Below, in pieces: positions 1,128 to 64,000 of a stretch of 64,000 bases of DNA. Under the pieces are notes generated by a model that did no database searches, was not told the DNA's origin, and was given only the letters and a program-made list of their open reading frames with translations. Made by a program: the position numbers and the translations under genes. Every line of letters begins with the position of its first letter. Position 1 is the first letter of the stretch. Source of the stretch: a virus (taxonomy: Duplodnaviria; Caudoviricetes); IMG/VR virus record IMGVR_UViG_3300036546_000248. The stretch is one strand, 5' to 3'.

Positions 1128-1164
1128 AAGGCTAGAGAGGAGGCGTTGCCTCCTCTCTTATGCC
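1122..1164. terminator. bidirectional hairpin terminator with TTATG(C) flanks
   Basis: agagaggaggc-gtt-gcctcctctct stem between convergent genes, flanked by gacataa and ttatgcc. Confidence 0.8.
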
Positions 1165-1166
1165 GC

Positions 1167-1880
1167 TTACCAATTGGCGTACAGCTCATCGACCTCTGCT
1201 TGCGACAACAACTTGTTGTAAATCACCAAATCAGACACCAACCCCACGTTCTTCTCCCCCGTCTCCAACTCGTTAATCGAGCCGCACAGGTAATTACCCA
1301 GAGGCGGTCTGTAATTGGAAGCCTGAAGCAACGACAAGACACCATTGATGTAAATGCGATAGTTGCTACCGTCATAGGACAACGTCAACATGTGCCAACC
1401 TGTTGCTCCGATGGCATCAGGTGCTCGGTAACTAATGCCGTTGAAATGAATGTACGGACGCCCAGGGTAGGTCGGACTCAACTTAAAGGTAAAGTTTGCC
1501 TGATTACCTGAGTAGGTAAAGAAGTGTTGATAACCGTCAAGACTTCGTGCGTGATACCACAGGTTTATTGTCCATTGTGCCGGTAGCTGAAGATCAGTCA
1601 TCTTGATCCAGCCGGCGTTGATAAAGTCAACACAATCGCGACCATTCAACTTACGTTCAAACGCATTAAGTCCTAACGTGGTGCTGGGGTCATACAACTG
1701 GGCTACGCTCATCCCTGTGGCATAGTGTCGCAACTTATTCTCTTCTAGGTAGTAATTGACCCCAACCTTCAACCACTTCGCATTGTGCTTCTGCCATGTC
1801 GACCGCGGCTTAAGCCAGGCTCCTTGTCGTTTAAAGCGGGTAAGCCCAATTCCCCACTTACCGTTAGCTTTAACTTTCAT
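1167..1880 (-). CDS. putative adhesin/receptor-binding protein: triple-Trp N-terminal module plus LamG/concanavalin-A-like domain
   Basis: N-terminus MKVKANGKW...KRQGAW...KHNAKW; LamG-like motifs WTINLWY, GWHMLTLSYDGSNYRIYING, SDLVIYNKLLSQAEVDELY. Confidence 0.75.
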   Translation of the reverse strand: MKVKANGKWGIGLTRFKRQGAWLKPRSTWQKHNAKWLKVGVNYYLEENKLRHYATGMSVAQLYDPSTTLGLNAFERKLNGRDCVDFINAGWIKMTDLQLPAQWTINLWYHARSLDGYQHFFTYSGNQANFTFKLSPTYPGRPYIHFNGISYRAPDAIGATGWHMLTLSYDGSNYRIYINGVLSLLQASNYRPPLGNYLCGSINELETGEKNVGLVSDLVIYNKLLSQAEVDELYANW

Positions 1881-1940
1881 GTCGGCTCCACCGTTTTAAA
1901 GCGGGTTAGGTCTACCCATTCATACGATTTCTGGACCAAG

Positions 1941-1980
1941 GCGGCAAAAAAAAACAAGGGAGCCTAAGCCCCCTTGTTAA
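1941..1980 (-). terminator. intrinsic terminator
   Basis: Minus strand aacaaggggg-cttagg-ctcccttgtt followed by a T-run and GCCG. Confidence 0.75.
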
Positions 1981-1992
1981 AACGAACATCGT

Positions 1993-2322
1993 TCATTTGA
2001 AGAACTCGACGACCTCATAACGGTCATTGACTTGGGTTTGTTGGATGATGCGGCCTTGTGAGTCGACAATCAGACCGATACAGAGTTGCGGGAAGAGGTA
2101 AAAGCGTCGCGAGGAACGACTGTCGGCGAGAGTGATGCGGTGATACATACGGTCATCCCACGTACCGATGGTTCTCGACATCGCGTCGGTTTCCAGACTT
2201 TGCATAGGTTTGAGCGCAGTATCGACCTTCTCTACGATGTAACCGTTGGACACCATTTGGTGACCGTAGCGCAGTTCCATCACAGGAACTAATTGGGAGG
2301 TTTTTGCTTCTTTAACTTTCAT
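1993..2322 (-). CDS. hypothetical protein (about 109 aa)
   Basis: ATG at 2322 lies just after the upstream stop at 2327; the ORF-track start at 2436 would overlap the upstream gene by 110 nt. Confidence 0.6.
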   Translation of the reverse strand: MKVKEAKTSQLVPVMELRYGHQMVSNGYIVEKVDTALKPMQSLETDAMSRTIGTWDDRMYHRITLADSRSSRRFYLFPQLCIGLIVDSQGRIIQQTQVNDRYEVVEFFK

Positions 2323-2326
2323 GGCG

Positions 2327-3334
2327 TTATTCCATAGAGTTTGGGGTGTATTGTGGGTTGAGTACAAAGACATCGTTGTCACGAACTTCGTAGTCCGTAC
2401 AGTAGGTGCCCCTCCCGACGATGTCAAGTTGACCAATCAGGCGACGGATCAGGAAGGGGAGGTTTTGCCAATAACCTTGTTTTACCCTTAGAAAGGCGTA
2501 GGCTACGTCGTTGGTGGTGTAACACAACCGTTCTTCTTCGTCGCGGTAGAACGACAGTTTGAAGGCTAAAGGTTGTTTAATGTTGGGATGTACGGTGAAG
2601 TTCTCAATCTCCACCACAACTTCATCACAAGACAGGTACTGACCCACCACGGTCAGCTCTGCCCAGTCGGGCGTACCTGGGTTGTCGTTCTTCAGCGCTT
2701 CGAAAGCACCACCCTCCATTCGGTCACAGAAGTAGAGATACTCCTCCCCTATTTGAGCATAGTCAACGTAAGCGACCGGCGTAGTGTTCAACAACACATT
2801 CAAGTCGGTGCGCTCAACCTGCTCAAGTTCGTTGGTGTAGTAAACTCGCTCTATGGTGAAATCGGGGTAGATGGTCTCAAACTCGCTAAGGGAGTGACCG
2901 CTAGGGTTAATCACCTTCAACGGACTGTAGAACCAAGTACTTCCGGAGCCGTAAGAGAAGAGTTGGTAAGGACGTGCATAGTCAGCCAACTCCCCTGCAA
3001 TGTATTGTTTGTTGAGTAAGAGGTAGTAGTACCACCCCATCAACCGAACCGGCTCTGGTAGCGTGGTGTTGCTACGCTCGTTCTTCTTGAAGTGAACCTG
3101 CCCGTAATTCTCTGCTGGGTTTTTGTAGATCATGGCGTGGACTTGGCTTTTCGGACCGCGTCCTGCCACCATTTCCCAAAACAAACGCCGTTGTTCTTCC
3201 TGACCCAGTATATCAATCTGGGTGGCCGTAAGTCGCAGGGCTTGTTCGATGCCAGGGATCATACTGGCCATCCCTGAAGATGAGAGGATTGATTGAGCGA
3301 TGTCTTTACAAGCCCGACTGTAATCATTGTTCAT
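2327..3334 (-). CDS. hypothetical protein (335 aa)
   Basis: Long ORF with GAGGA SD upstream. Confidence 0.8.
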   Translation of the reverse strand: MNNDYSRACKDIAQSILSSSGMASMIPGIEQALRLTATQIDILGQEEQRRLFWEMVAGRGPKSQVHAMIYKNPAENYGQVHFKKNERSNTTLPEPVRLMGWYYYLLLNKQYIAGELADYARPYQLFSYGSGSTWFYSPLKVINPSGHSLSEFETIYPDFTIERVYYTNELEQVERTDLNVLLNTTPVAYVDYAQIGEEYLYFCDRMEGGAFEALKNDNPGTPDWAELTVVGQYLSCDEVVVEIENFTVHPNIKQPLAFKLSFYRDEEERLCYTTNDVAYAFLRVKQGYWQNLPFLIRRLIGQLDIVGRGTYCTDYEVRDNDVFVLNPQYTPNSME

Positions 3335-3360
3335 GGAGGATATCCTCGTTGCGTTTAAGG

Positions 3361-3981
3361 TTAGGCTGAAAGCTCTGCGACACGCAAAGCTTCTTGTGCA
3401 ATTGGGGTGTTAAGGAACTGACTAGCCCAGACTTGACCTTCAGGGGTGTACAGATTGATCCGGTGTTTAACCTCGGCCTTTTTGGCAATCTGTAGGGTGG
3501 TATTGGTACCACCGCGCACTTTCTCGGTTTTACCCACAGGAATGGCCCAATACACCAAGTACTCAACCTTGTCTTGAAGACTAGCCCCATGTATCTGCAT
3601 GACGTTGCGACTGTGAAGATTGATACCCCAGTCATCCAACCCATGAAAGCTTCCGCGCGCTTCGAGTGCCATTTGTTTGGCCTTCTCAAAGGTTGGGAAC
3701 CGTTGAGCATTGTAGAAAAAGTTCTTCGGATCAGCTTTCCTGCCCCGCACCCACTCATCACACAAGTAAATACGTGCACCGATCTTACGGTAAAAAGGAC
3801 TCAACAGAGCACCCTCCCAGAAGGCTCTATCAGCCCCTCTGGCGTCACCTGAAGATAATCCGTACCCTAGGGCATAAAAGACCACAGCAAGCTTCTGCAT
3901 GAGCTTACAGACGTCTTCCGGTGTATCCCGACTCCCAACCCCTGCGAACCAACCTTTGAACTCGGGTGTGGACATGGTCAA
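3361..3981 (-). CDS. SLOG-superfamily (DprA/Smf-like) nucleotide-binding protein
   Basis: FAGVGSRDTP and LSSGDARGADRAF motifs typical of the SLOG Rossmannoid fold; GGT near the C-terminus. Confidence 0.75.
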   Translation of the reverse strand: MTMSTPEFKGWFAGVGSRDTPEDVCKLMQKLAVVFYALGYGLSSGDARGADRAFWEGALLSPFYRKIGARIYLCDEWVRGRKADPKNFFYNAQRFPTFEKAKQMALEARGSFHGLDDWGINLHSRNVMQIHGASLQDKVEYLVYWAIPVGKTEKVRGGTNTTLQIAKKAEVKHRINLYTPEGQVWASQFLNTPIAQEALRVAELSA

Positions 3982-4421
3982 TCCTTAACAAGCTTGAGTT
4001 CTTTACGAGCATTCATTGCTACCTTGCCCAAGTAGTCCTTCTTATCGAAGGGGATACGGTAAACAATGGCTACGTGGTCTGTTGTGTCGGTGCGATTCAT
4101 GACGTAGTGTTCAATTGAATCGACATCGCCCACGCGAAGGTGCGTAAACACCTCGGTCAAACACCCCTGCATCCAATCCGCATACTGCAACATGTCGTTG
4201 TTATCAGCATCGTACATGATCACATGAAGGTCGTTACAGGTGTGCTCAACATCATTGACGATGAACAAACACCCCTCTCCCCGAGAGAGTTCTATCTCGC
4301 GGTATTTAAAACCCATTTCAAAATGCTTACCACTAAACGTTTCGATACACCCCAAATAGTTCAAAGGGTTGGTGGGTAAGATCTTCTCGTCACGAGCAAA
4401 GACAATAAAGACAACAGACAT
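3978..4421 (-). CDS. hypothetical protein (147 aa)
   Basis: ORF with AAGGA SD; 4-nt overlap with the next gene. Confidence 0.75.
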   Translation of the reverse strand: MSVVFIVFARDEKILPTNPLNYLGCIETFSGKHFEMGFKYREIELSRGEGCLFIVNDVEHTCNDLHVIMYDADNNDMLQYADWMQGCLTEVFTHLRVGDVDSIEHYVMNRTDTTDHVAIVYRIPFDKKDYLGKVAMNARKELKLVKD

Positions 4422-4442
4422 AATTTATTTTCCTTAAAAGAG

Positions 4443-4484
4443 GGCATAAGTAATCGGGACCGAAGTCCCGATTGCCAAGGTTAT
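4443..4484 (-). terminator. hairpin terminator after dcd with TTATGCC tail
   Basis: aatcgggac-cgaa-gtcccgatt stem (cUUCGg loop on the minus strand). Confidence 0.8.
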
Positions 4485-4501
4485 TTACAGACAGCTTCCC
4501 T

Positions 4502-5326
4502 TTAAACGCGCGGAGTGACGACCCCGGTCTGGAACATATATTTGCCTTCGCGGTCGGCGTAGGACGTTATGCAGTCTTGGTCGCTCTCGAAGAACAAGAA
4601 CTGTGCAATACCCTCATTAGCGTAGATCTTCATCGGTAGGTTAGTGGCATTAGAAATTTCAATGACCACATTACCTTCGAACTCAGCTTCGATCGGCGTC
4701 ACGTTGACGATAGCACCGGCACGCGCCAGGGTTGATTTACCAACAGCGATAACCGTAACGTTACGCGGAATGCGGAAGTATTCCACAGTACGGCCCAAAA
4801 GGTACGAGTTCGGAGGTAGGATCACGTACTCGTCGCCGGTTTCATCAGTGTGGACCACCGCATCTACCAAACACTGGGTGTCAAAGCGCTTAGGGTCGAT
4901 GATCGCTGAGTTGAGGTTGGTAAAGAGTTTGAACTCGGTAGACAACCGCACATCGTAGCCGTAGCTGGAAGTACCGAAAGAAATCAGCCGTTCCCCTTTG
5001 CGATAAAGACCACCGTCCTTTTCCACTACCTCGTCTTCCAACAATCCATTATAGTGATCGAACTTATCAGACTCAGACAACGGACTGTCTTCACGGTAAC
5101 GCACTTGGACACCTACGAAGGGTTCGATCATCGGCTTCCAGTCGATCTTGGCAAGATCCTCAGGACGCAAACGAGTTGCGATGTAACGCTGTTCTTTACT
5201 TTCGAGTTCTTTGGGGGTATGGGTGATACCTTCCCACGCCAGTGTAGTGTCACGACCATGAACGGTGTGAAGGGCATGGCTGGGAGGAGTAGATTGAGTA
5301 GCAATCCATTTGTCGGATTTGATCAT
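4502..5326 (-). CDS. dcd: dCTP deaminase with two N-terminal insertions
   Basis: [81 protein letters not shown] at 5326 has an AAGGA SD. Confidence 0.93.
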
Positions 5327-5408
5327 GGTAGTGTCCTTAAGGTTAAGGTCAGTTGAAGATTCCTTTATATAGTTTAGGTTTTTAATATTTTTTAATGAGG
5401 GGTGGGGT

Positions 5409-5438
5409 GGCATAAACGGGAGTGTTACCTCCCGTTTA
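5409..5438 (-). terminator. hairpin terminator with TTATGCC tail
   Basis: aaacgggag-tgttac-ctcccgttt stem next to ggcata. Confidence 0.75.
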
Positions 5439-5440
5439 AG

Positions 5441-6070
5441 TCAGTGTCTGAGTGTGAACTCGAAGTCCCGCATACCACGCAGGGATGAGGGGTAGTAACG
5501 ATTCTCTGTATACGCCGGATAGGACAGCACATCTAACCCTGTGACATATACACCTTCAGGAACCGTGTAGGTGTAGCGTTCGCCGAGTACGTTGCGCGTT
5601 ACCTTTTCTTCAAAACCTGCATCCCCTTTGTATATTAGTTGTCCTGACGGACCATGAGCCCACGCATCGATGGTTCCGATGGTTTGAGTCGTCCCGTTAC
5701 TCAAGTGAATCCTGATGTAGTTGAGGTGCAAACCTTCCACTGGGTTGTTGTAATACCCGGTGAATGTTGCACTAACCTTACGGATTTTTGATAAGGTGTC
5801 GACAGAAAACTTGCTAACCATAGGCGGGTAGTTATTTTGAACGGTCGGATAGACATCGCGGTACCATCCGCGCACACTGTCGTATACCCACCCAGAAGGG
5901 TTTGCGATAACGTCAGAGATTTGAGTGAGACTCAGTAACTCAATTCCGTCAATGACTCGCCACTCCCCGCTTTGTTTTAACAAGGTGCTCTGAGGAGTGA
6001 TCCAACCAAGGTTTGTCAATCGGGCCTTAAGGGAACCTTCCGACCACTTCCCTCCTGCTTTAACTTTCAT
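5441..6070 (-). CDS. triple-Trp N-terminal module protein, putative adhesin tip
   Basis: MKVKAGGKW...LTNLGW...KQSGEW, then an aromatic, beta-rich C-terminal domain. Confidence 0.7.
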   Translation of the reverse strand: MKVKAGGKWSEGSLKARLTNLGWITPQSTLLKQSGEWRVIDGIELLSLTQISDVIANPSGWVYDSVRGWYRDVYPTVQNNYPPMVSKFSVDTLSKIRKVSATFTGYYNNPVEGLHLNYIRIHLSNGTTQTIGTIDAWAHGPSGQLIYKGDAGFEEKVTRNVLGERYTYTVPEGVYVTGLDVLSYPAYTENRYYPSSLRGMRDFEFTLRH

Positions 6071-6079
6071 GACGACCCC

Positions 6080-6592
6080 TTAAATCAAAATGCGATGTTG
6101 TACTTGTGTGGTCGGTAGATCCCGATAGGTTCTATACCACACCCGAGTAGTCCCGTACTGTGGCTGCCAGTTATTACTAACGAAGTGAAGCGGAATGTCG
6201 TTAAACATACCAATCTGTGGCCACGGAATATGCGTTTGGTTTCCCGCCATGTGGAACGTAAACCATCGTAGCGCACCTACGCCAATCTGTGAGTCCATAC
6301 CCCACTCACAACTCGCCCAGATGATGTTGTTGTCAAACAGGTTAAAACGATCAGTGCTAATGTCCCCAGTGGGTACGTAGGACTGCGCATAACCGAAACG
6401 TTCTCCATAAGACGGAAAGACGTGTGTGGGGATAATCAACAGGTCAATGATGCTAGCCGGTTTGTGCGGTTCACTGACGTCCTTCCACTGACCCCCGACT
6501 TTGGTAAACACGTGTTCGCCTTTGCGCCACACGTTGGCTTGCTTGAAATGGGGCAGTGTCTTTCTCCACGCCCCACCGGTACGTAGTCTCAT
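6080..6592 (-). CDS. triple-Trp N-terminal module protein, putative adhesin tip
   Basis: MRLRTGGAW...KQANVW...KVGGQW, then a YGERFGYAQSYVPTGDIS beta domain. Confidence 0.7.
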   Translation of the reverse strand: MRLRTGGAWRKTLPHFKQANVWRKGEHVFTKVGGQWKDVSEPHKPASIIDLLIIPTHVFPSYGERFGYAQSYVPTGDISTDRFNLFDNNIIWASCEWGMDSQIGVGALRWFTFHMAGNQTHIPWPQIGMFNDIPLHFVSNNWQPQYGTTRVWYRTYRDLPTTQVQHRILI

Positions 6593-6611
6593 GTTGGTAT
6601 CCTAGAAGTTG

Positions 6612-7121
6612 TTAAACAGGGTCGTGGATGAGTTTGATGGTGAGTGTTTTACCGTACTGGCTCTTCAAGTACTGATGAACGTTCTTAACGCCATCTGAAA
6701 AGTATCGACGTGTGATCGTGTCAGAACTTCCCTGGTTCGTACTTTTGAACGGTAGTCGTCCCAAACCCTCGATTTCAACAGCGATGACTTTAGACGAGTC
6801 ACCTTTAGCATACAGACCAAACTGGAAGCCTGTTTGATTGTCATCGGGTGAGTTGAAGTCACGGATCTCGAGACCACGGTAATACGCAGGAGAAACAGTG
6901 CCTGGGTCAGGACTGCCTTGTTTGTAGAAGCCGTACCACACCTGTGGGGCGTTGAATGTTCCTACCCTTATTTGAAACGTTTCAATAATTTCATGTCGTC
7001 GAGCTATTGTCCAAACCCCGTCGATTTTGTAGTAAACAATATTTCCTCTCACCCAACTATTCAGGCGCTTGAGTTTGAGGTCGTTAACGTCTAACCAACC
7101 CTCGTTAATTCGAATCTTCAT
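6612..7121 (-). CDS. triple-Trp N-terminal module protein, putative adhesin tip
   Basis: MKIRINEGW...KRLNSW...KIDGVW, then WYGFYKQGSPDPGTVSPAYYRGLEI, which resembles fibre C-terminal domains. Confidence 0.7.
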   Translation of the reverse strand: MKIRINEGWLDVNDLKLKRLNSWVRGNIVYYKIDGVWTIARRHEIIETFQIRVGTFNAPQVWYGFYKQGSPDPGTVSPAYYRGLEIRDFNSPDDNQTGFQFGLYAKGDSSKVIAVEIEGLGRLPFKSTNQGSSDTITRRYFSDGVKNVHQYLKSQYGKTLTIKLIHDPV

Positions 7122-7184
7122 AACAACCTCTGTCGTGTCAGGGGATTAGAAAAAGGTACCTTCATAAAATTTCTGAGGATTGCC

Positions 7185-7226
7185 GGCATAACCGGGAGGT
7201 TACCCTCCCGGCTAGCTCTTTATGCC
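7185..7226 (-). terminator. terminator after the terminase gene
   Basis: ccgggagg-ttac-cctcccgg stem flanked by ggcataa and ttatgcc (the latter includes the terminase stop). Confidence 0.8.
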
Positions 7227-9436
7227 GCCCGACGCCCGGTAAGGCCACCACGCCCCATGATCTTACCCCACGGGTTGAGGCTCTTCTGAACATGCGCCGC
7301 GTTGTGTGCACGCGCAGCTTTGATGTTGCGCAGACTACGTTCTTCCGAGGCCTTCTGGATCAGGCTGGACAAGCTGGTAACGGTGTCCTCATCCACACTG
7401 TCCATAGCGGCCAGTTTACGCGTGAGGTGTTCAAGCTTGGCTTCCAACCGCGCCACCACAAAGGTCTCTTTGGCATTAACCAACAGTTCGTAGACTTCTT
7501 CCATCTCCTTCTTCATCTTGTTAAACTGTGCCCGCTGATACAGCTCTTCAGGCGTCAGTTGTTTGTTGTTGCTAGTCACTGCAGACAACAGCTTACTGGT
7601 ATCGATTCCATAGTGATCCAAATTACGACCCATGGTCACCAACCACTGTGCCAACAACCACGCAATGACCGTGTCATCATGACCGGAGGCCGCGTGATCG
7701 ATTCGACCCTTCTTCACCACCAACCCACGAATCTCTTCAGACAACTGCTTGTCGTGTACCAAGTGCCCGCTGTCTTTCGCCGCATTCTGAAGAACCGGTC
7801 CGTAGAGTAGCGCACGGGTTTCGGCATTCGTGTTAAAGCCAAAGTAGCCTTTAGTCTCGTCGTAGAATTGTTCCGTCCGAGTACCCATGGGTTTACAGAT
7901 GGTCTTGTAAAGGTCTGCTTTCTCATTGGAGTTCTCCACAATACGGTTGAAGATACGACGGAACGGATCTTCGCCCATGGCTGGCAACTTCAGGATCAAG
8001 GCATCAACGATCATCTGACCAGTCGACTTCTTCTCAGGAATCAAGGTGATGTTCTTAAACCGCACCAAGAACTCTGCCAAGAAGTTAGAGAACCGAATCA
8101 GGTTAGTCTCATTGACATTGAACGCACCCACCACCGACAAGTCCTTGGTGTTAATGATCGTCCCTGCAATCCCGTCTCGACCCACCGCTTCAGAGGTATC
8201 CAACCCCAAGATGAACTGGTCGGTCTGCGTCAAGCGCTGAAGGCTGACTTCATCGACATACCAACGCACCACGTACAACTCTTTGGACACGAAGTTGTAC
8301 ATCACATCCCGTACCGAGTTTTTGATCATCTCGTTGAGCTGTGGGGTCAACGGCGAGCTTTGTGTACCAGACGTCCAGACGTTGAAGAAGTCGCGGTTTG
8401 CTCCATCACCATAGGAGTTTGCCTCCGCCATGGTCTTGTACAACCACTCGTCGGTGTAACCCAATTGGCGGTGCGAGAAGGTTGCGTTGATCAGGATCTT
8501 ACGACCAGGGTTGTTCTTCGCCACCATCTCATGGAAGGCTGCTTTGTCTACACAGTCAAAGTACAGTTCAGTCCACTTAGCACCGCCGTGGATCATGTCG
8601 TACATGTACTTGCCGTCGCGGTCATCCTTCTTACCAGCGGTTGTGGTGAAGATGTTACCGTGTGGACGGTTGTGTTTACGGGCTTCTTCACGCGCTGCGT
8701 TACCGGCCGCCAGCGCAGCAGGCAAAGTGATGCCAATGAAGTTAATGAACGGACCTTCGTCGATGTGGCTGATTGGTGAGGTCTGTCCACGACCCAGGTT
8801 GTTAGCACTGGATTCGGAGTTTTGAGCAACACCTGTGGAGTAGGTGTTCTCCCACTTCTTACAGGTGACTTCGAATTGGTTATCAGAGTCTGTACGACCC
8901 TTAGCGACCAAATAAGGTGGTAATAGATCCCGGATTTTCTTCAGACGTTCAACGTTAGCCTTACGCAGAGCATCGTCCTTTGTGATCATGTTGATACGAG
9001 AGTTACTCGTACCCAAGAACAGTAACCAGATCATCAAACAGTCAGTAGATACCGATTTACCTGTCTGACGAGGTTGGATCAAGGCGATGTCCATGTTGTT
9101 GATAAAGGTCCATGTGGTCGCCATGTTCCCCCGGTTGGCTTTGTAGGGAACCGGGTTAGGGCCTGCCACAGGTGGAATGCGCACTACTTCACGTAAGTAG
9201 TACCAAATGTTGTACCGGCACTCCAAACCAATCTTCATCTTGTAGGCATCGGACAACACTTCAGAATGTGGGTCAACCCCAATCAATTCCGGTTGCATAA
9301 TCGCCAAGGGCCACAGGCAGTTTTTAATCCCCATCTCTTTTAGCAGGGAGCTGTAGCGTAGGAAAGATTCGTTCTTTGTGGAATAATCCACTCTGGCCAT
9401 CGGGTAACGATGCCAATCGTTTCCAAACAAAATCAT
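7220..9436 (-). CDS. terL: terminase large subunit (phiKZ gp25-like)
   Basis: Walker A PRQTGKS, Walker B ISHIDEGPF, coupling motif FTTTAG, nuclease LGLDTS and GHDD; synteny with the gp26-30-like genes. Confidence 0.95.
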   Translation of the reverse strand: MILFGNDWHRYPMARVDYSTKNESFLRYSSLLKEMGIKNCLWPLAIMQPELIGVDPHSEVLSDAYKMKIGLECRYNIWYYLREVVRIPPVAGPNPVPYKANRGNMATTWTFINNMDIALIQPRQTGKSVSTDCLMIWLLFLGTSNSRINMITKDDALRKANVERLKKIRDLLPPYLVAKGRTDSDNQFEVTCKKWENTYSTGVAQNSESSANNLGRGQTSPISHIDEGPFINFIGITLPAALAAGNAAREEARKHNRPHGNIFTTTAGKKDDRDGKYMYDMIHGGAKWTELYFDCVDKAAFHEMVAKNNPGRKILINATFSHRQLGYTDEWLYKTMAEANSYGDGANRDFFNVWTSGTQSSPLTPQLNEMIKNSVRDVMYNFVSKELYVVRWYVDEVSLQRLTQTDQFILGLDTSEAVGRDGIAGTIINTKDLSVVGAFNVNETNLIRFSNFLAEFLVRFKNITLIPEKKSTGQMIVDALILKLPAMGEDPFRRIFNRIVENSNEKADLYKTICKPMGTRTEQFYDETKGYFGFNTNAETRALLYGPVLQNAAKDSGHLVHDKQLSEEIRGLVVKKGRIDHAASGHDDTVIAWLLAQWLVTMGRNLDHYGIDTSKLLSAVTSNNKQLTPEELYQRAQFNKMKKEMEEVYELLVNAKETFVVARLEAKLEHLTRKLAAMDSVDEDTVTSLSSLIQKASEERSLRNIKAARAHNAAHVQKSLNPWGKIMGRGGLTGRRAA

Positions 9437-15449: not shown

Positions 15450-15661
15450 CTATTCAATCTCCTGGTTTACTGGGACGTAAAAGTTTACTAAACTTAGGTA
15501 TGTAGTTCGTCGCTGGAATAGTATGATGTACTACATCAGTGTACGGCAACTATACCATTCAAGTTATTTCTCCTCCGATAAGACCATGGCTTGGACGAAG
15601 AGTAGATTTGTTTGGTCCTTTAATCGCGATTAATGATCAACGTTTGATCACGGGAGCTGTT

Positions 15662-17719
15662 ATGATCACAATCAAAAACGCTGCCCCTCGCGCCATCCTG
15701 AACGGTATCAAGGATGAGTCTGGTCGCGCTCCGGTCTACCAACCGGAAGCACGTCCCACTCACATGCCGCATGTGTTTCTGTTTGCACAGCGCGGTCCTC
15801 TGGTTCCTCAGGTTGTCGTGGGTGACAGTCTTGTCTCCACCTACGGCGCGGAGTCTTTCGACTACCGCTCCAAGTACGCTACTCACCAGACGGTGCTGAT
15901 CAACACCGTTAACGGTCGCGGCAACATGATGGTTGCTCAGCGTGTAGTAGCCGAAGACGCAGCCATCGCTGCACTGGTTCTGTGGGCTGACTACGTGGCC
16001 GATGACGTTCCGGACTTCCAGCGTACTGAAAACGGCCGCTTCCTCCTGGACGCCGAGGGCAAGCGCATTCCGACCGGCCAAACCGTTCCGGGTATCCGCG
16101 TTCGCTACGAGATCAGCGGTCTGGAAGCAGAACAGGATCTGCACACCCTGGAGCCTCGCGTAGGTACCCTGGTGGCTGAATCCGACGGTACTCAATCGAC
16201 CATGGTTCCGCTGCACGCTTGGCGTGTCTCGTCCCACGGTTCGTTCGGTGACCTCGTCGGTATCCGTCTGTCGTCCCCGACCATCGACTCTTCGTCGCCG
16301 GTTAACGACGAACTGATCGAAACGGCTCGTGCCTACATGTACCGCCTCGCGATGGTTGAGCGCCCCTCGATCAACAGCCTGCCGGTTGTGAAGGAAACCC
16401 TGTATGGTGACCAGTTCATCGACTTCACCTACAAGCCGGGCGTGATCAACGCCAAAACCGATACCGAAGTGTCGGTTGATGACATCCTGCTCCAGAGCTG
16501 GAACCAAGAGGCCTCCAACGGTCTGCCACCGACCATCGGTCTGATCAACGATCAGCACGTCTACTTCGACAACATCGAAGCCCTGCTGACCAAGATCCAG
16601 GAAAACGAAAGCCTGCACGGCCTGGTCTCCGAGTCCGAAGACGACCTGCACATGGTCAACTTCATCGGCGGTCACGACTACAACGGTACGCCGTACTACA
16701 GTCTGGTCATCGAAGGGCCTTCGGCGGGTGGTATCCTGCTGAACGAGAACTCGACCCATTATGCCCGTGGCGGTGCTGACGGCACGATGGATTTCGAAAC
16801 CTTCGATCGTCTGGTCGGCGACATCTGCGCCAACTACGGTGAAGGTGAATACCACTTCCTCGACAGCGCGGTCTACCCGCAGTCGATCATCTGGGATTCG
16901 GGCTTCAGCCTGGAAACCAAGAAGAAGTTGCTCACCGTTCTCGGCCGTCGTAAAGACATCGCTGTGATCCTGTCCACCCAGGACGTGTCGCAGCCGCAGA
17001 ACAGCAACTCGGAAGAATCCTCGATCGCCGTTTCGCTGCGTACGGCTGCCCGCATGTTCCCGGAATCGGAAGTCTACGGTACCTCCGTTTGCCGCGCCAT
17101 GGTTGTCGGTCATTCCGGTTATCTGGTCAACTCCAAGTGGAAGCAGCTGACGCCGCTGACCATCGAGCTGGCGGATAAGTGTGCGGCTTACATGGGTGCC
17201 GGCGACGGCGTCTGGAAGTCCCGCGCCAAGTTCGACATCTCTCCGGCCAACCAAGTCACCATGTTCCGCGGTGTGAACTCGACCTATAAAAAGGCCAACG
17301 TTCGCTCCAACGATTGGGACGCAGGTCTGGTCTGGGTACAGAACTTCGACCGCCGCAGCCAGTTCTTCCCTGGTCTGCAAACCGTGTACGACGACGACAC
17401 CAGCATCCTGAACTCCATGTTCAACATGCTGATCGCCGTTGAACTCGAGAAGGTTGCTGAAATCACCTGGCGTCAGCTGACTGGTATTTCCGGTCTCACT
17501 GAAAACCAGTTCATCACCCGTTCGAACCGTCTGATCGAAGAAGCCGTCAAAGGTCGCTTCGATAACCGCGTTGTGATCGTCCCGGATACCTTCGTATCCG
17601 AAGCCGACCAGCAGCGTGGCTTCAGCTGGGGTTGCAACATCGTGATGTACGGCAACAACATGAAAACCGTGGGCTCGTTCACCATCGTAGCCCGCCGTCG
17701 TGAGGACCTCGAACAATGA
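15662..17719 (+). CDS. contractile tail sheath protein (phiKZ gp29-like)
   Basis: MITIKNAAPRAILNGIKDES...HMPHVFLFAQRGP; C-terminal YGNNMKTVGSF; SD GGGAG before ATG 15662; strong codon bias. Confidence 0.92.
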   Translation: MITIKNAAPRAILNGIKDESGRAPVYQPEARPTHMPHVFLFAQRGPLVPQVVVGDSLVSTYGAESFDYRSKYATHQTVLINTVNGRGNMMVAQRVVAEDAAIAALVLWADYVADDVPDFQRTENGRFLLDAEGKRIPTGQTVPGIRVRYEISGLEAEQDLHTLEPRVGTLVAESDGTQSTMVPLHAWRVSSHGSFGDLVGIRLSSPTIDSSSPVNDELIETARAYMYRLAMVERPSINSLPVVKETLYGDQFIDFTYKPGVINAKTDTEVSVDDILLQSWNQEASNGLPPTIGLINDQHVYFDNIEALLTKIQENESLHGLVSESEDDLHMVNFIGGHDYNGTPYYSLVIEGPSAGGILLNENSTHYARGGADGTMDFETFDRLVGDICANYGEGEYHFLDSAVYPQSIIWDSGFSLETKKKLLTVLGRRKDIAVILSTQDVSQPQNSNSEESSIAVSLRTAARMFPESEVYGTSVCRAMVVGHSGYLVNSKWKQLTPLTIELADKCAAYMGAGDGVWKSRAKFDISPANQVTMFRGVNSTYKKANVRSNDWDAGLVWVQNFDRRSQFFPGLQTVYDDDTSILNSMFNMLIAVELEKVAEITWRQLTGISGLTENQFITRSNRLIEEAVKGRFDNRVVIVPDTFVSEADQQRGFSWGCNIVMYGNNMKTVGSFTIVARRREDLEQ

Positions 17720-46118: not shown

Positions 46119-47276
46119 TCAACGGTCAGTGAGGAACTTACACACCGCCGTTAGATTGTCTGTGAAGTTGGAACGGTCCGGAATTACTTTACAGTTGTCG
46201 GGTTTACCGTAGTAGTAATAATGAACCAGTGGAAGGGTGTTAGTGATCACCAACTCATACAGCTTTGGGTTTTGGGTTATCTTGCAAATCCATCCAATGC
46301 GCATCAAACGATCAAAGTCGGGGTTTTGGATGTAGTTCTTGTGATCAGCCTTTCCTTTCTTACGCGCTTCAAACCCTGAGAGTTGGGCATACTCATAATC
46401 AAGCATTCCCGTCTTCAAGAAGAAGTGTAAACCCTCGGCTGTATTGAAGTGTCCAAAGGCTGGGTGTTCAAACCCGATAGGTGAAGGGTTGGTTAACAAA
46501 CGACCCAGCTCCGTGTGCCCTCGACTGTAGATGTTGATGTGATCAATTGAATCTGTACTTGGATGATAAACTCGAGGAGGTTCTATCACCGTTAACTCCT
46601 TTTCGACATAAAACCAATCTTGGTACTTAGGATCTTCAGAGACCAGTCTTCTCACAACTGACCTTTTCTCCATCCCAATAGCCATACTGGCACTTATTAA
46701 AGTTGGGTACTCCACCCCTTGAATAGAGACGGGTTTACCACACGCCAAGCGACTAGCTCCATTTGCAGCCAATCGATGTTCTTCGGAAAAGGGACGACCT
46801 TTCATAGCCACCGACATTTTTCGCCGCGTTTCGTCCGGTAGAGTCCTCCCTAGCTTCGCCGCCGCCAATTTAGAACGCCACTCTTCATCCATTATTCGAC
46901 CTTTGTTGGCGGCCGACATTTTTGCCCGATGTTCTTCACTAAAAGACAAACCCTTCATGGGTGATCGAACATCCATGCAGAAGTTGAGTAATGATGGATT
47001 GTCTTTATTAATGATAATTGTCGCTTGTTCAAGATCGTAAGCTTGATCTCGTCCAAAACAAGGAGTAGTTTCGAAATCCAATTGCGGGTTTTCGTTATAT
47101 AGCTCTTGTAGCCTTTTATTGTGGTGACGTCTGTTCTTCAAATCCCATAAATGATCCATCTTCCGTTTGTTAAAGTTGGAAGTACTTCCAATATAGAAGT
47201 GACCAGTACTTGTGTGGGTTAGGACATACATCACACATTGGTCATTGAGTACCTCCGGTAACGGTGTCAGTTCCAT
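46119..47276 (-). CDS. GIY-YIG homing endonuclease (NUMOD3 repeats) fused in frame to a NADAR/T4 gp30.3-like domain
   Basis: VMYVL...FYIGST...R..DH, LEQ, N; four SEEHR-type repeats; a C-terminal HTH-like segment; then DHINIYS...LTNP...F..AEG...K...LSGFEA...GK...K.TQN. Confidence 0.8.
   Translation of the reverse strand: MELTPLPEVLNDQCVMYVLTHTSTGHFYIGSTSNFNKRKMDHLWDLKNRRHHNKRLQELYNENPQLDFETTPCFGRDQAYDLEQATIIINKDNPSLLNFCMDVRSPMKGLSFSEEHRAKMSAANKGRIMDEEWRSKLAAAKLGRTLPDETRRKMSVAMKGRPFSEEHRLAANGASRLACGKPVSIQGVEYPTLISASMAIGMEKRSVVRRLVSEDPKYQDWFYVEKELTVIEPPRVYHPSTDSIDHINIYSRGHTELGRLLTNPSPIGFEHPAFGHFNTAEGLHFFLKTGMLDYEYAQLSGFEARKKGKADHKNYIQNPDFDRLMRIGWICKITQNPKLYELVITNTLPLVHYYYYGKPDNCKVIPDRSNFTDNLTAVCKFLTDR
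46590..47276 (-). mobile_element. homing endonuclease portion (probable recent insertion)
   Basis: GIY-YIG plus NUMOD architecture; visibly more AT-rich than the flanking genes. Confidence 0.6.
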
Positions 47277-58793: not shown

Positions 58794-60161
58794 ATGTCTA
58801 CCCTTCTCGATCAACAAACCGAGGTACACGTTCAGCTCGGTAACGGCGCACCGGCATTTCTGCCTACTGCGATCGGTCAACACTACATCGACATCGCCAA
58901 CCGCCGCGTTTACCAATCGGTAGGCATCAACTCTGTCGAAGACTGGTCGGTACCGCTGGCCAATATGGCTGACCTTGATGCTCTACCTAAGACCAAAGTC
59001 GACTTCGGTCTCGGTAACGTCGAAGACTACGGCGTTGCCAGCCAGTCTGAAGCCGAACTGGGTCAGGCCAATGACCGCTACATGACGCCTCTGCGTGTCA
59101 CTCAGCTGCTCAATGCCCTGTTCATGCCGGTCCTCGACACCTTCATGGCTCGTCGCGACAACCCGCATCAGGTCACTGCTGAACAAGTCGGTGCACTGAC
59201 TTCGGAAGCCACCCAACTGCTGTTGGATGAGAAACTGGCTGAAGGCGACCTCGCCGGTTTGCTGCAAGCATTCTGGGCGGAAAAGGTCGGCAGTGCTCCG
59301 GAAACTCTGGATACCATCCAAGAGATCTCTGCTGCGCTGCAAAACAACCCGGACGTTATCACTGTCCTGCAACAGTTGGTCAATGACAACGCCGCTGCGA
59401 TTGGTGCGTTGGAAACTCGTGTTGATGGTATCGATGCTGAGATCACCCAAACGCAAGCAGACTTCGCCGCTGGCGTGCAGGCCGTTAACGACCGCGTTGA
59501 TGCTGAAGCCCTGGCTCGCAACACTGCTGACCAAGCGCTTGATGACAAGATTGTTGAAGTCGACACGCGTCTGTCTGCCGGTAAGGTTGACGTAGGCGGT
59601 GACATCTCCACCAACACTGTCACTCAAGGTGAAGGTGAAGCGGCTCAACAGGTTGCCCTGAGCGTTCTGATTGCTCAGCTTCAGGCGGGTATTTCTGAAG
59701 CAGGCGATGCCAGTGACCTCGAAGCACTACAGGCTGCATTCAATGCGTTTGTTGCGGCTAAAGCCACTGCCGCTGAAGTCATCGCCGGTCTGGATGATGA
59801 GAAATACACCACTGCCATGGCAGTTAAAGGTGCTATTGACCAAGCCGTCGCCGAATTGGTGGGTACTGCTCCTGAAGCACTGGATACCATCCAAGAGCTG
59901 GCTGAAGCGCTACAGAACAACCCTGATGTGATCGCTGGTCTGGTTGACCAGATCGCTACTAAGGAAACGCCTGAAGGCGCACAAGCTAAAGCCGATGCCG
60001 CTCTGGTTGAAGCCAAAGCCTACGCCGACACCACTGCAGCTTCCAGCGTTGAAGCCGCTCAGCTGTACAGCGACAGCACCACCCAAGCCCTGATCGACGA
60101 ACTCAACCGCCTGGCTGCTGAGATCGAAGGGTCTGGTACCGAAGAAGTACAGGCACAGTAA
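58794..60161 (+). CDS. acidic fibre-like virion protein (455 aa)
   Basis: Fibre motifs GQHYID, FGLGNVED, NPHQVTAEQVG, two APE(T/A)LDTIQE...LQNNPD; coiled-coil segments; strong codon bias. Confidence 0.75.
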   Translation: MSTLLDQQTEVHVQLGNGAPAFLPTAIGQHYIDIANRRVYQSVGINSVEDWSVPLANMADLDALPKTKVDFGLGNVEDYGVASQSEAELGQANDRYMTPLRVTQLLNALFMPVLDTFMARRDNPHQVTAEQVGALTSEATQLLLDEKLAEGDLAGLLQAFWAEKVGSAPETLDTIQEISAALQNNPDVITVLQQLVNDNAAAIGALETRVDGIDAEITQTQADFAAGVQAVNDRVDAEALARNTADQALDDKIVEVDTRLSAGKVDVGGDISTNTVTQGEGEAAQQVALSVLIAQLQAGISEAGDASDLEALQAAFNAFVAAKATAAEVIAGLDDEKYTTAMAVKGAIDQAVAELVGTAPEALDTIQELAEALQNNPDVIAGLVDQIATKETPEGAQAKADAALVEAKAYADTTAASSVEAAQLYSDSTTQALIDELNRLAAEIEGSGTEEVQAQ

Positions 60162-62270
60162 CACCTGTACTTAAGTGAGCACTCTTAAGACCGTTCTTTT
60201 TAATCGGAACGGTTTGTTTAATTCAGTCCATGGGGATGTAAAAAAATGGCAATGTCTAATGCGGAACTCGAAGTTGCCCTGAAATCGGGTCTTCAACGCT
60301 TGGTTACCGCTCTGGCCAACAAAGTTGCGCCGGACTCTCTCTTACTCGAAGGCAAGTCTCTGGCTGAAATCACCAGCCTGATCCTCGCTGGTAAAGCCGC
60401 CACTGCAGGCACAGCCGACAACGCACTGGCTGTAGGTGGTAAGGACCTCACCACGCTGGAAAGCGAGCGTAATGCTCAGCTGGTTGCTGCCATCGATGCC
60501 CTGCGTATCGAACTGGAAGGCGAAATCAGCAACGTCACAGCTGAATCCCTCGGTCTGGGTAACGTCGTTAATTACGGTATTGCCACCGAAGAAGAAGCTC
60601 TGGCTGGTGCCGTTGACAAATACGTCACTGCTGCTCTGGCAGTCAAGATCGCTCAGGTCAAGATCGACGAAATCGTTGGGGCAGCTCCAGAGACTCTGGA
60701 CACCCTGGCTGAAATCGCCACGGCTCTGAAAAACGATCCGGACGTTATCAACACGCTGATGTCCAACATTGGCACTAACGCCACTGCGATCGAAGCGCTG
60801 GAAACTGCAACTGCAGCGTTCGAAGCCAAGGTACTGAGCTACTTTGACGTTGACGGCAATGCCAACAACGCCAACCTGCTTGCTGGCAAGACTCTGGACG
60901 AAGTCCTGGCTCTGGCACGCGACGGCGTGGACATGTCCAATGTCGTTCTGAAGACCGACGACTTCAGTCAGTACATGGTCACTCTGACCGAAGGTGCTGA
61001 GGCCCAATCGATCAAGCAAGTCTTTAATGATCTGGAGGCGGCTGACAAAGCTCAGGTTGCTGCAACTGAAGCGCTGGACGCCAAGGTTGAACAGAACGCC
61101 ACTGCTACTACTGAAGCCCTGGCCCTCAAGGCCAACCAAGCTGACGTAGACGCAGCCGTTGACGGCATCAACACTGCGCTGTCGACCAAGGTTGAAGTGG
61201 GTAGCAACATCGCCACTAACACCCTCTTGGTTGGTGAAGGCGAAGGCGCTGCTGAAGTTGCTCTGTCGCAGATCATCGCTGACATCAATGCTGCAATCGC
61301 CGCTGGTGGTGCTGCATCGACTGAAGGTCTGGCTGACCTGCAAGCTGCTCTGGATGCGTTCATCGCAGCCAAGGCCACTGGCGAAGAAGCTATCGCTGGT
61401 ACCGACGATGCCAAGTACATCACTGCGCTGGCCCTTAAAGCCGCACTGGATGCGCTGAACCTCGCTGGTAAACTCGACGTTGATGCCCAAGCCGTTGACT
61501 CGGCTAAGCTCGGCGGCAAGAGCTTGGAAGAAGTCATCGCTGACGCTCAAGCTGGCGTTGACATGTCGAACCTGGTCTTCAAGACCGACGACATGGGCCA
61601 ATACTCCCTGGTTCTGGCCAGTGACGTAGAAGGCGAGCCGGTTCGTACCTTCAAGCAGATCCTCGACGCGTTCGAAGTGACGCTGGGTGAGAAAGCCACT
61701 GCTATTGATCTGGCTGCTGAAGTTGCAGCTCGTGAAGCACTGGACACTCGCCTGTCGGGTGAAATGGATGCTGTTGAGGCTCGGGCAACCGCGCTGGAAG
61801 ACCGCGCCACTGCGCTGGAATCCGACAAGCTCGACGCTACCGCGCAAGCTGTAGACTCGGCTAAGTTGGAAGGCAAGTCGATTGCTGACTTGACTGCCAG
61901 CGGTGAAGAAGCAGCTGCCGGTGTCATCACCGATAAGTTCATGACTCCCGGTACTGCCAAGGAAGCTTTCGATGCTCGTTGGGCTGAGAAAGTCGGTGCT
62001 GCGCCTGAGACCCTCGATACGATCGAAGAGATCGCGTTGGCTCTGCGCAACAACCCAGATTCCCTGGCTGCAGTGGAAACCGTTGCCAAGCAGTACACCG
62101 ATGCTGAAGTTCTGGCTGCCATTCAGCAGATCTCCGGCGAAGACATGGTTGCTGGCACCACGCTGGCTAGCCTGTACGCTCAGGTTCAAGCTCTGCAAAC
62201 CTCCAAGCTGGACGCTACTGCGACTGCAGTAAACTCCGAGAAGCTCGGTGGCAAGAGCCTCATGGAAGTC
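59280..62270 (+). repeat. protein-level module repeats shared between the two fibre genes
   Basis: APE(T/A)LDT x4; an approximately 85-aa KV(D/E)VG...GEGE...AKAT...DD.KY block at about 59583-59840 and 61188-61450. Confidence 0.8.
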
Positions 62271-63080
62271 ATCGATTCGGCTATCCAGCCTGGTCGTCTG
62301 TTCTACCCGGTTGTCCATGTCAATGGTAGCCTGGAAGAAGACAACTACGTCATGCCGACTCCGGCTGATGTCTGGGCTCAGGTGAAGACCAACGCCGTTA
62401 TGGAACAGGTCGACACCATCTACGCCGTGGGCGTCAAGCGTCTGCTGCCGGGTAACCTGCTGGCCCTGACCAATCAGGAAGGTATGACCCTGCGTGGTGC
62501 GGTGTCTGAGGCACAAGAAGGTCCTGGCTACGTTATCATGCGTGCCGGTATCGATGACACTGAGTGGACTGTGATCACTGACCCGATGCTGGGTTGCGTG
62601 GCTCGCCTGTCCAAGCACTGTGTCGTTGTCGGCGACAACACTGAGCGTTTCGTTCCGGGTCAGACGCTGTTCTACAACGGCTTCGAAGCTCTGAGCGAAA
62701 ACGTGTACTACGACTGGACGCTGATGGCGGACAAGGAGTGGGAAGTCGCTACCTTCACCGGTACTGACCTCGTGATCGACAGCGCTCGTTACCATCGCAG
62801 CGAAATCCGCATTCAGTCCACCGGTCCGGTCACCGTGACGTTCGACGTCCCGACTGACCTGCCGTACGAGATGGAAGTGCGGTTCGTGAACCAGACTGGG
62901 GTCGAAGTGACCTTCGCTGGTAGTAACGTGGTGTCGGTACCGCGTATGCAACAGTACACCCTGACTAAGGTCAACGGTGTGGTGCGTGCCGTACGTTACA
63001 CCAACACCTCCGTTTCGTTGGCGGGTGATATGGATGAAGCGTTCTTCGTCAATCCGGATTACTCGGCACCTCAGGTCTAA
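60246..63080 (+). CDS. acidic, repeat-rich fibre protein (944 aa) with a C-terminal beta domain
   Basis: LGLGNV, two APETLDT, five (N/D)A..L.GK repeats, two GVDMSN..KTDD blocks; C-terminus ending SLAGDM resembles fibre distal domains. Confidence 0.75.
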   Translation: MAMSNAELEVALKSGLQRLVTALANKVAPDSLLLEGKSLAEITSLILAGKAATAGTADNALAVGGKDLTTLESERNAQLVAAIDALRIELEGEISNVTAESLGLGNVVNYGIATEEEALAGAVDKYVTAALAVKIAQVKIDEIVGAAPETLDTLAEIATALKNDPDVINTLMSNIGTNATAIEALETATAAFEAKVLSYFDVDGNANNANLLAGKTLDEVLALARDGVDMSNVVLKTDDFSQYMVTLTEGAEAQSIKQVFNDLEAADKAQVAATEALDAKVEQNATATTEALALKANQADVDAAVDGINTALSTKVEVGSNIATNTLLVGEGEGAAEVALSQIIADINAAIAAGGAASTEGLADLQAALDAFIAAKATGEEAIAGTDDAKYITALALKAALDALNLAGKLDVDAQAVDSAKLGGKSLEEVIADAQAGVDMSNLVFKTDDMGQYSLVLASDVEGEPVRTFKQILDAFEVTLGEKATAIDLAAEVAAREALDTRLSGEMDAVEARATALEDRATALESDKLDATAQAVDSAKLEGKSIADLTASGEEAAAGVITDKFMTPGTAKEAFDARWAEKVGAAPETLDTIEEIALALRNNPDSLAAVETVAKQYTDAEVLAAIQQISGEDMVAGTTLASLYAQVQALQTSKLDATATAVNSEKLGGKSLMEVIDSAIQPGRLFYPVVHVNGSLEEDNYVMPTPADVWAQVKTNAVMEQVDTIYAVGVKRLLPGNLLALTNQEGMTLRGAVSEAQEGPGYVIMRAGIDDTEWTVITDPMLGCVARLSKHCVVVGDNTERFVPGQTLFYNGFEALSENVYYDWTLMADKEWEVATFTGTDLVIDSARYHRSEIRIQSTGPVTVTFDVPTDLPYEMEVRFVNQTGVEVTFAGSNVVSVPRMQQYTLTKVNGVVRAVRYTNTSVSLAGDMDEAFFVNPDYSAPQV

Positions 63081-63091
63081 GTAACAATCGT

Positions 63092-63120
63092 GCAGCGAGG
63101 GGCAACCCTCGCTGTATGAC
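63092..63120 (+). terminator. hairpin terminator
   Basis: cagcgaggg-gcaa-ccctcgctg followed by tatgac. Confidence 0.8.
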
Positions 63121-63161
63121 GCCTATTTAATGACAGTCGACTTCTTTTAAAAGGTTTAACC

Positions 63162-63779
63162 ATGGCCCGAATGACCCCACCGTTGCTTACAAAAGGGCGT
63201 TACACCCTGGTCAATCCGTTTGTGGCTGAGGACACCGTACTTTACACCTGTACGGCACTGCGTACTTTTGCTGAATGCGAAGTGGCGGGCGAAAACGTCT
63301 TACAGGACGTGTACCTCAAACACAACCTGACCGAACGTGAATACAACCGTGACTTGAATGCCGGTGCATTGTTGGTTACGTTGATGTCTGAGACTCAACC
63401 ACCCATCTTTGTACCTGACACCTACATCGAGTCATACCCCAATCTCTCCGATGTCGTGTATAACCATGTGGTGTTAACCGTCTCCTTGGGATCAGTTCCA
63501 GATTTCCTGAACTTCGATTTCCTCAAGGCGCAGATGGCTGCGCTGGTTTCCGATGTTATCGGTGTTACACCAGAAGTTAAGTTGGCGCGGGCAATCAGTA
63601 GCGGTATCGTCACCCCCGAACAACACGAAGCAATGGAAGTGGGGCGACAAGCAGCCATCAAGCTTCGTACCACCGATCGAGCAAAGAACGTAGAACTACA
63701 AAACAAGTGCACCCGTCTGGAAGAGCAAAACAAGATTCTGGTCGAACTGCTTCAACAACACAACATCATTCCGATGTAA
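63162..63779 (+). CDS. conserved phiKZ-like protein, probably structural (205 aa)
   Basis: MTPPL..KGRYTL..PF, YVPDTYIESYP-type motif, LTVSLG.VP; recalled family. Confidence 0.7.
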   Translation: MARMTPPLLTKGRYTLVNPFVAEDTVLYTCTALRTFAECEVAGENVLQDVYLKHNLTEREYNRDLNAGALLVTLMSETQPPIFVPDTYIESYPNLSDVVYNHVVLTVSLGSVPDFLNFDFLKAQMAALVSDVIGVTPEVKLARAISSGIVTPEQHEAMEVGRQAAIKLRTTDRAKNVELQNKCTRLEEQNKILVELLQQHNIIPM

Positions 63780-63999: not shown

Positions 64000-64000
64000 T

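Follow-up and report, generated by a model that had tools for sequence, protein, structure and literature searches.

A portable three-hairpin module links four small genes of an uncultured jumbo phage to a candidate family of tail accessory proteins with variable, partly lectin-like heads

Four small genes, here designated A to D (Table 1), in a 64,000-nt stretch of viral DNA (the window; IMG/VR record IMGVR_UViG_3300036546_000248) from an uncultured, phiKZ-like, nucleus-forming jumbo phage encode proteins that start with the same module of about 40 residues and continue into domains of different kinds. We hold with moderate confidence that this module is a constant three-hairpin handle for the assembly or attachment of peripheral tail proteins, whose variable, lectin-type heads bind host glycans. 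Genes A-D would then belong to a family of 10-12 small accessory proteins in one phiKZ-like jumbo clade, each composed of a self-folding 40-residue module and a different beta-rich, mostly lectin-type domain; the handle would either fix the protein to a multi-copy partner in the virion or nucleate the protein's own assembly, the variable domain would bind glycans on the host surface, and the clade would have expanded the set to 10-12 heads. Phage receptor-binding proteins that combine a constant anchor with exchangeable heads are already known; the novelty lies in the handle, a domain of 40 residues that hundreds of phage proteins carry at one terminus or the other.

Sequence evidence for a shared module

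A reading of the window from its letters alone (the original prediction) had listed the four open reading frames (ORFs), quoted their N-terminal strings and claimed that they share an N-terminus of about 40 residues made of three K/R-x-K/R...G-x-W units. All four ORFs and strings are present at the coordinates given, on the minus strand, with units of the form K-x-x-G-x-W, and the similarity between them lies far above chance in both hidden Markov model (HMM) searches and leave-one-out comparisons. When the first 45 residues of genes A-D are aligned, M1, W9, W22, K31 and W36 are invariant. An HMM of the four sequences, run against every six-frame open frame of 30 residues or more in the window (1106 in all), recovers genes A-D at E 1e-22 to 1e-24, with the next best match at E 0.16. 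If each protein is omitted from the model in turn, it returns as the top non-training match (E 1.1e-5, 8.9e-6, 1.7e-5 and 2.5e-3) over a background that begins at E 0.08 to 0.84. A fifth copy in the window is found neither by the four-sequence HMM nor by a richer 30-row HMM that includes relatives, one row of which was mistakenly a second-domain fragment of a LamG relative. Across an alignment of 31 diverse modules, W9, W22, K31 and W36 never vary and K4, K17 and G34 hardly do; each hairpin contributes an invariant Trp and an invariant Lys. Among the window proteins, the sole module-bearing PHROG family to be matched is phrog_21772 (function not known), and the matches are weak (E 3.4e-4, to residues 1-40 of gene B, and E 0.027). 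Proteins of the module family have no signal peptide or membrane segment, and the module starts directly at their N-terminus.

Predicted structure of the module

Folded by AlphaFold2 from the 31-row module alignment, the gene B copy is predicted to form three beta-hairpins (strands 2-5/8-11, 15-18/21-24 and 29-32/35-38), with a predicted local distance difference test score (pLDDT) of 85.8 overall and of 88-89 over residues 1-40. The same three hairpins recur, at pLDDT 61-67, in the full-length model of gene C. PDB searches revealed no solved structure of the module or of a relative, and the sequence profile search yielded nothing significant, its best match being the choline-binding protein 4cnl (E 0.42). 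In fold comparisons with the module model, none of 48,161 chains reached Z >= 2 in VIA-align and the best Foldseek match had E 3.2; a 45-residue model is a small and weak probe for such searches, so these results are no proof of a new fold.

Mean-field direct coupling analysis (DCA), applied to 188 distinct module sequences, reproduces the registers of the hairpins and couples hairpin 1 to the start of hairpin 3, for example through positions 9-28 in all three runs. These couplings, which are exploratory, come without a significance test and are confounded both by the division of the sequences into N-terminal and C-terminal forms and by repeats within the module, could reflect a closed arrangement of the hairpins or contacts between chains. 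Three proteins from other phages that carry the module at their C-terminal end (L060, L077 and L078) show a pair of module matches that overlap (335-371 and 361-398 of 399 aa). Such a pattern suggests a repeat number that can depart from three, with more than three consecutive hairpins in some carriers.

C-terminal heads of the four proteins

One of the four C-termini had been predicted to be LamG-like, and this is borne out by gene D, residues 91-230 of which match Laminin_G_3 (Pfam PF13385) at E 2.7e-13 and 50.7 bits against a cut-off of 27.6, above the gathering score and across model positions 6-150 of 151. The description of the remaining C-termini as aromatic beta domains is in keeping with the model of gene C, and is a putative one for genes A and B. 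Folded by AlphaFold2 together with 12 relatives (pLDDT 78, predicted template modelling score 0.75), gene C is predicted to have an all-beta sandwich as its C-domain. For residues 42-209, the best VIA-align match is 5ly8_A, the carbohydrate-binding module (CBM) CBM2 of the Dit protein of Lactobacillus phage J-1 (Z 8.8, root-mean-square deviation 4.0 Å over 159 aligned residues), followed by a mycobacteriophage baseplate chain (Z 8.0) and by concanavalin-like or legume lectins and GH16 enzymes at Z of about 7, a range (Z < 8) that may reflect merely a common arrangement. Foldseek returns no match to gene C at E <= 1e-3, its best standing at E 1e-2. Two of the four heads would hence be concanavalin-like, that of gene D by its Pfam match and that of gene C, more tentatively, by its predicted fold.

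The original prediction also regarded the heads as unrelated to each other. This agrees with the comparisons involving gene C, in which similarity is confined to the module or its immediate surroundings (residues 1-39 against gene D by hhalign; residues 1-51 against gene A by profile comparison), but not with genes A and B, which align over residues 1-125 (probability 90%, E 1.4e-6), if weakly in their C-domains, and, because of this, may be diverged paralogues rather than carriers of unrelated domains. Gene A matches no Pfam family, PDB profile searches with the gene A and gene B families give chance-level matches only, and the ESM Atlas yielded no usable model for either gene; the relatives of gene B are P0005, P0076, P0083, P0102 and P0104.

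The module family in a jumbo-phage clade

Orthologues of gene A are found in three IMG/VR contigs at 71-90% identity, and one of these contigs (G004) is a complete 222.7-kb genome with terminal repeats. A module profile search of such jumbo-phage relatives for copy number and C-terminal variation had been put forward with the original prediction and was run here. With the four-sequence profile at E <= 0.01, the three contigs hold 10, 6 and 11 copies, the contig with six being of half length, and a richer model locates a twelfth copy in the complete genome; full sets thus comprise 10-12 copies, and at least seven C-terminal types make up the clade family. In every case the module runs from residue 1 of an ORF of 160-250 aa. 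Four types have a single member each in the window, and in the relatives the C and D types both occur as pairs of paralogues. phiKZ, LucasX, Xoo-sp14 and RTH11 lack the module, and Burkholderia phage FLC9 has one partial match.

One member in the complete genome lies directly past genes for a baseplate assembly protein and a PAAR protein, near two fibre-like genes, three are placed between a radical-SAM/oxygenase cassette and genes of lysis type, and others are found among DprA, HNH endonuclease and PhuZ genes. At the locus of the first (L083, G004:116000-130000; ORFs 7103-7864, 6840-7103 and 6125-6775, minus strand), the module gene is 1.4 kb from two large fibre-like genes. The right end of the window (58794-63779) corresponds to this locus, and by this correspondence a matching module gene should be located just past base 64000. 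The three members next to the cassette (L082, G004:96000-111000) are tandem genes of 162-166 aa. The cassette on one side of them consists of three radical-SAM genes and two 2OG-Fe(II) oxygenase genes, and on the other side lies a gene resembling a peptidase or baseplate hub, near which a spanin gene is found.

The module in other phages

A profile search of 1.84 billion representative proteins returned 51 matches at E <= 1e-3, with the module N-terminal in 25 and at the extreme C-terminus in 22; two matches are spurious repeat proteins (P0012 and P0047) and two are unclear (P0026 and P0051). A wider search of longer proteins with the 31-row alignment gave at least 259 matches among 8000 scored candidates, and the only name given to these carriers is 'hypothetical protein'. 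Pfam scans of 33 of the 51 matches identify Laminin_G_3, Flg_new (Listeria-Bacteroides repeats), fn3, TSP1, Gly_rich_2 and DUF859 as partner domains, with no family over the module itself and no family at all in 15 of the 33. NCBIfam has no model for the module, and no published description of it was found in open-access PubMed Central (PMC) papers and bioRxiv preprints. The profiles of phrog_21772 (positions 1-40) and of phrog_6977, a 'minor tail protein' (C-terminal end, positions 246-284 of 284), do include it, but these are whole-protein clusters and not domain definitions. Among the metagenomic carriers, P0043 (291 aa) joins an N-terminal module to three thrombospondin type 1 repeats (TSP1_ADAMTS, E 2.4e-35), an animal-type adhesion repeat in a phage-like protein.

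The genomic context of these carriers points to the tail. A degenerate DNA pattern for two canonical repeats identified 32 loci on viral contigs, in each of which the ORF ends with the module. PHROG annotation of 12 of these loci (139 ORFs within 5.5 kb), chosen for the longest flanks and with two near-duplicates dropped, places tail or baseplate families in adjacent genes in 10 cases. The order tape measure, Dit, Tal, module gene and then holin or endolysin is frequent, as in L065, L054 and L049, and in loci such as L056 and L062 the module gene is preceded by baseplate wedge proteins; the module gene adjoins an endolysin and a Hoc-like protein in L064, and lies just upstream of the small terminase in L053. 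Cultured phages provide further cases. The N-terminal form is present in 53 records of T5-like Vibrio phages. In Vibrio phage Ceto the carrier is gp43, which closes the tail cluster and is preceded there by gp37-39 (tail proteins), gp40 (tail fibre), gp41 and gp42; KIT04_137 of phage KIT04 is another Vibrio phage carrier. Six Microbacterium phage records have a 'minor tail protein', gp32 of DoTi being one, with the module at its end.

The proposed handle and its alternatives

The notion of swappable, virion-bound binders on a common handle is upheld in part by these observations: a terminal module that is portable across varied domains, carriers that are linked to tails, and heads that are lectin-like. 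From them we infer a virion location for the proteins of this phage, a role as handle for the module and glycan binding for the heads. Several observations weigh against this reading or against its simplest form, a docking peptide. The C-terminal position of the module, its commonest form in tail proteins and the one seen in 32/32 canonical loci, is ill-suited to a simple proximal anchor, and the module repeat resembles a trimerisation or folding element rather than a known baseplate anchor. Most copies in the clade reside among non-structural genes; they lie downstream of the terminase, by the dCTP deaminase and DprA-like genes, close to genes for lysis, or in the company of HNH and PhuZ genes. 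The fold matches of gene C are middling (Z 7-9, and none in Foldseek at the threshold used), and the published proteomes of phiKZ, LucasX, Xoo-sp14 and RTH11 are uninformative on the module because these phages lack it. The possibility that the N-terminus is a capsid-targeting propeptide cut by the head protease was also considered, and is disfavoured by the C-terminal module of tail proteins elsewhere; the S/A/G-x-E motif, which from phiKZ work we take to be the cleavage motif of the head protease, is seen by eye just past the module in gene C only (G-I-E).

The resemblance to a folding element was detected with a position matrix derived from 93 module repeats of the 31-row alignment. The foldon hairpin of T4 fibritin (YVRKDGEWVFL) scores 11.3 bits with this matrix, at the top of 477 fibritin windows (next 3.7), and is the only one to reach that score among 79,938 six-frame windows over 40 kb of T4. 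In the jumbo-phage window, 15 of 127,936 windows do so, 11 of them true repeats and four background. The true repeats range from 2.7 to 32.2 bits around a median of 24.2, so that the foldon falls among their lower scores. What is seen here is an 11-residue pattern match that was sought post hoc, a resemblance and no proof of homology. It does lend substance to the earlier claim that K..G.W hairpins occur in phage fibre proteins, since the T4 fibritin foldon carries one. A further matrix match, near the C-terminus of a fibre-like gene of the window (62961-62993), has no Trp and was treated as chance.

The foldon and the module have in common a short beta-hairpin with an aromatic/aliphatic-V-K/R-x-x-G-x-W-V pattern and, in the phage fibre protein, a terminal position, where the foldon acts as an assembly element. 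It is conceivable, if unlikely, that the module is itself a foldon-type nucleus for folding or trimerisation, and the proteins short homotrimeric fibres with no separate docking partner. Besides the matrix score of the foldon hairpin, the best in fibritin and in 40 kb of T4, this reading can draw on the C-terminal module of tail proteins, which occupies the position of the foldon, and on JS98-type fibritins, which carry two foldon motifs in tandem (PMC3797505). The foldon is a 27-residue trimerising unit in which a polyproline helix precedes the hairpin (PMC12644675). The polyproline segment has no evident counterpart in the module, and the window modules differ further in being N-terminal, in being followed by beta domains with no coiled coil, and in bringing three hairpins in one chain, whereas the foldon contributes one hairpin per chain and forms its unit from three chains. 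A score of 11.3 bits, moreover, is well under the median of the true repeats. Concanavalin-like and CBM heads are also commonly monomeric.

A variant that we deem doubtful, and that is hinted at by the foldon-like repeat together with the exploratory covariation of hairpins 1 and 3, would make of the module a single-chain foldon, its three hairpins set around a pseudo-threefold axis in the propeller that T4 fibritin builds from three chains. If this were true, a monomeric lectin head would bear a three-fold plug for capping, or docking onto, trimeric fibres and other sites of three-fold symmetry, and jumbo myoviruses, T5-like siphoviruses and actinophages would be reusing one universal adaptor to swap heads.

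It is likewise doubtful that the family is non-structural in this phage, acting in or outside the infected cell (for instance by binding the envelope at lysis or by blocking superinfection), with the module engaging some other partner. The scatter of its genes among those for nucleotide metabolism, recombination, lysis and homing endonucleases would fit such a role, as would the bracketing of gene D by hairpins of its own, in the manner of an inserted cassette, and the presence of the hairpin-TTATGCC element described below upstream of non-structural genes too. Against it stand the lack of a signal peptide or membrane segment in the proteins, the consistent link of carriers elsewhere to tails, and the clade member located between PAAR and fibre genes.

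Very unlikely, finally, is a module that itself binds cell-wall or capsular polymers as an aromatic hairpin repeat, like the choline-binding repeats, and thereby creates two-headed lectins: the invariant Trp and Lys of each hairpin, the distal C-terminal position in tail proteins of other phages, and two matches that are not significant, the pneumococcal choline-binding protein 4cnl as the sole PDB sequence match and the choline-binding domain 3hia amid the Foldseek noise (E 5), speak in its favour, but Pfam has no match in the N-terminal regions at E <= 1, CW_binding_1 included, the repeats recur every 13-14 residues against about 20 in choline-binding repeats, the three Trp are probably required as the core of so small a domain (40 residues), and the occurrence of the module in phages of hosts as different as Vibrio, Microbacterium and others disfavours one shared ligand.

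Relation to known systems and implications

The preferred reading, a constant handle with variable heads, follows the same logic as the N-domains of P22-type tailspikes, the T4 gp10-like adaptors of phages with multiple tailspikes and the lactococcal BppU/BppL proteins, in all of which one constant terminal module serves many binding domains with several paralogues per genome. The module described here is not known to have a sequence or fold link to any of them, is much smaller (40 residues) and may occupy either terminus. The T-even adhesin gp38, invoked as a precedent by the original prediction, holds as an analogy only, in that it too is a small protein with a gene of its own for which a role in widening the binding specificity of a fibre has been proposed; gp38 combines an N-terminal attachment domain of its own with a glycine-rich head, and Pfam and PHROG scans of the four proteins detect no gp38 or adhesin family. 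The heads recall the CBM2 of J-1 Dit (5ly8), to which the gene C head is closest in fold, and the LamG3 domains of jumbo phages, which a review links to tail fibres and other virion parts (PMC7824862). The CBMs of such 'evolved' Dit proteins sit inside large structural proteins, whereas the heads described here stand alone behind a 40-residue module.

A profile of the module would flag peripheral tail and host-recognition genes in unannotated phage genomes, especially those of jumbo phages. Should the module prove to be a self-contained mini-domain for docking or oligomerisation, it would provide a handy tag for phage engineering and protein display. For the clade itself, the existence of 10-12 paralogues with different lectin-type heads suggests an unusually broad glycan-binding repertoire.

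Genomic setting of the four genes

Split RNA polymerase subunits of both the virion and the non-virion type are encoded in the window, along with a tail sheath (15539-17719), a head protease, a UvsX-like recombinase, fibre-like proteins (58794-60161 and 60246-63080) and a fibre/transglycosylase protein of 2399 aa. Cultured phages are distant. At the terminase, identity to Xanthomonas phage LucasX is 52%, a search for near-identical DNA with the window gave no match, and neither did a tblastn search of cultured phages with gene A. Genes A, B and C come after the gene for the terminase large subunit (7220-9436), share its strand and are separated from each other by 19 and 9 bases; genes for a dCTP deaminase and a DprA-like protein are next in line. 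Gene D lies apart, bracketed by two terminator-like hairpins, and because these are found both upstream and downstream of it we regard it as a unit of its own (Table 1).

Table 1. Coordinates of the module genes and of associated elements in the window
Feature	Position	Strand	Description and basis
Gene A	6612-7121	-	169 aa; module and C-terminal domain without assignment; first gene past the terminase large subunit
Gene A module, residues 1-40	7002-7121	-	Alignments; HMM E 1.1e-23
Gene B	6080-6592	-	170 aa; module and C-terminal domain without assignment
Gene B module, residues 1-40	6473-6592	-	Copy folded alone by AlphaFold2
Gene C	5441-6070	-	209 aa; module (1-41) and predicted concanavalin-like beta sandwich (42-209), AlphaFold2
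Gene D	1167-1880	-	237 aa; module residues 1-40 (nt 1761-1880) and LamG residues 91-230 (nt 1191-1610)
GC-rich hairpin flanked by TTATGCC on both strands	7185-7226	.	Between terminase stop and gene A
Second hairpin with TTATGCC	5409-5440	-	Directly past gene C
Terminator-like hairpin upstream of gene D	1953-1978	-	Sequence
Terminator-like hairpin downstream of gene D	1134-1158		Sequence

The hairpin between the terminase and gene A is, to judge from its sequence, a possible terminator combined with a TATG-type promoter. The flanking motif TTATGCC includes TATG, which is present in phiKZ late promoters as their core (PMC4666361). It occurs 17 times in the window against 4.8 expected, a count reached in none of 100 shuffles, at sites that include 1158, 4443, 5409, 7185, 7220, 10263, 20064, 20108, 22171, 26174, 44714 and 54489, plus others. 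About 12 of the copies are in intergenic DNA immediately past a GC-rich hairpin, and in two places (7185/7220 and 20064/20108) a single hairpin has the motif on both strands. Hairpin and motif may constitute a terminator-promoter cassette of this clade. In the dCTP deaminase gene (4502-5413, minus strand), the ATG of the longest ORF falls inside TTATGCC and the PHROG match extends from residue 30, a Met at which translation probably starts, the upstream ATG being part of the putative regulatory motif.

A homing-endonuclease-like gene (phrog_314) is found amid core genes of the window at 46119-47276 (minus strand), and in the relatives further HNH and homing endonucleases adjoin genes of the module family (locus L084). 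Such endonucleases may account for the differences in gene order of the family between genomes.

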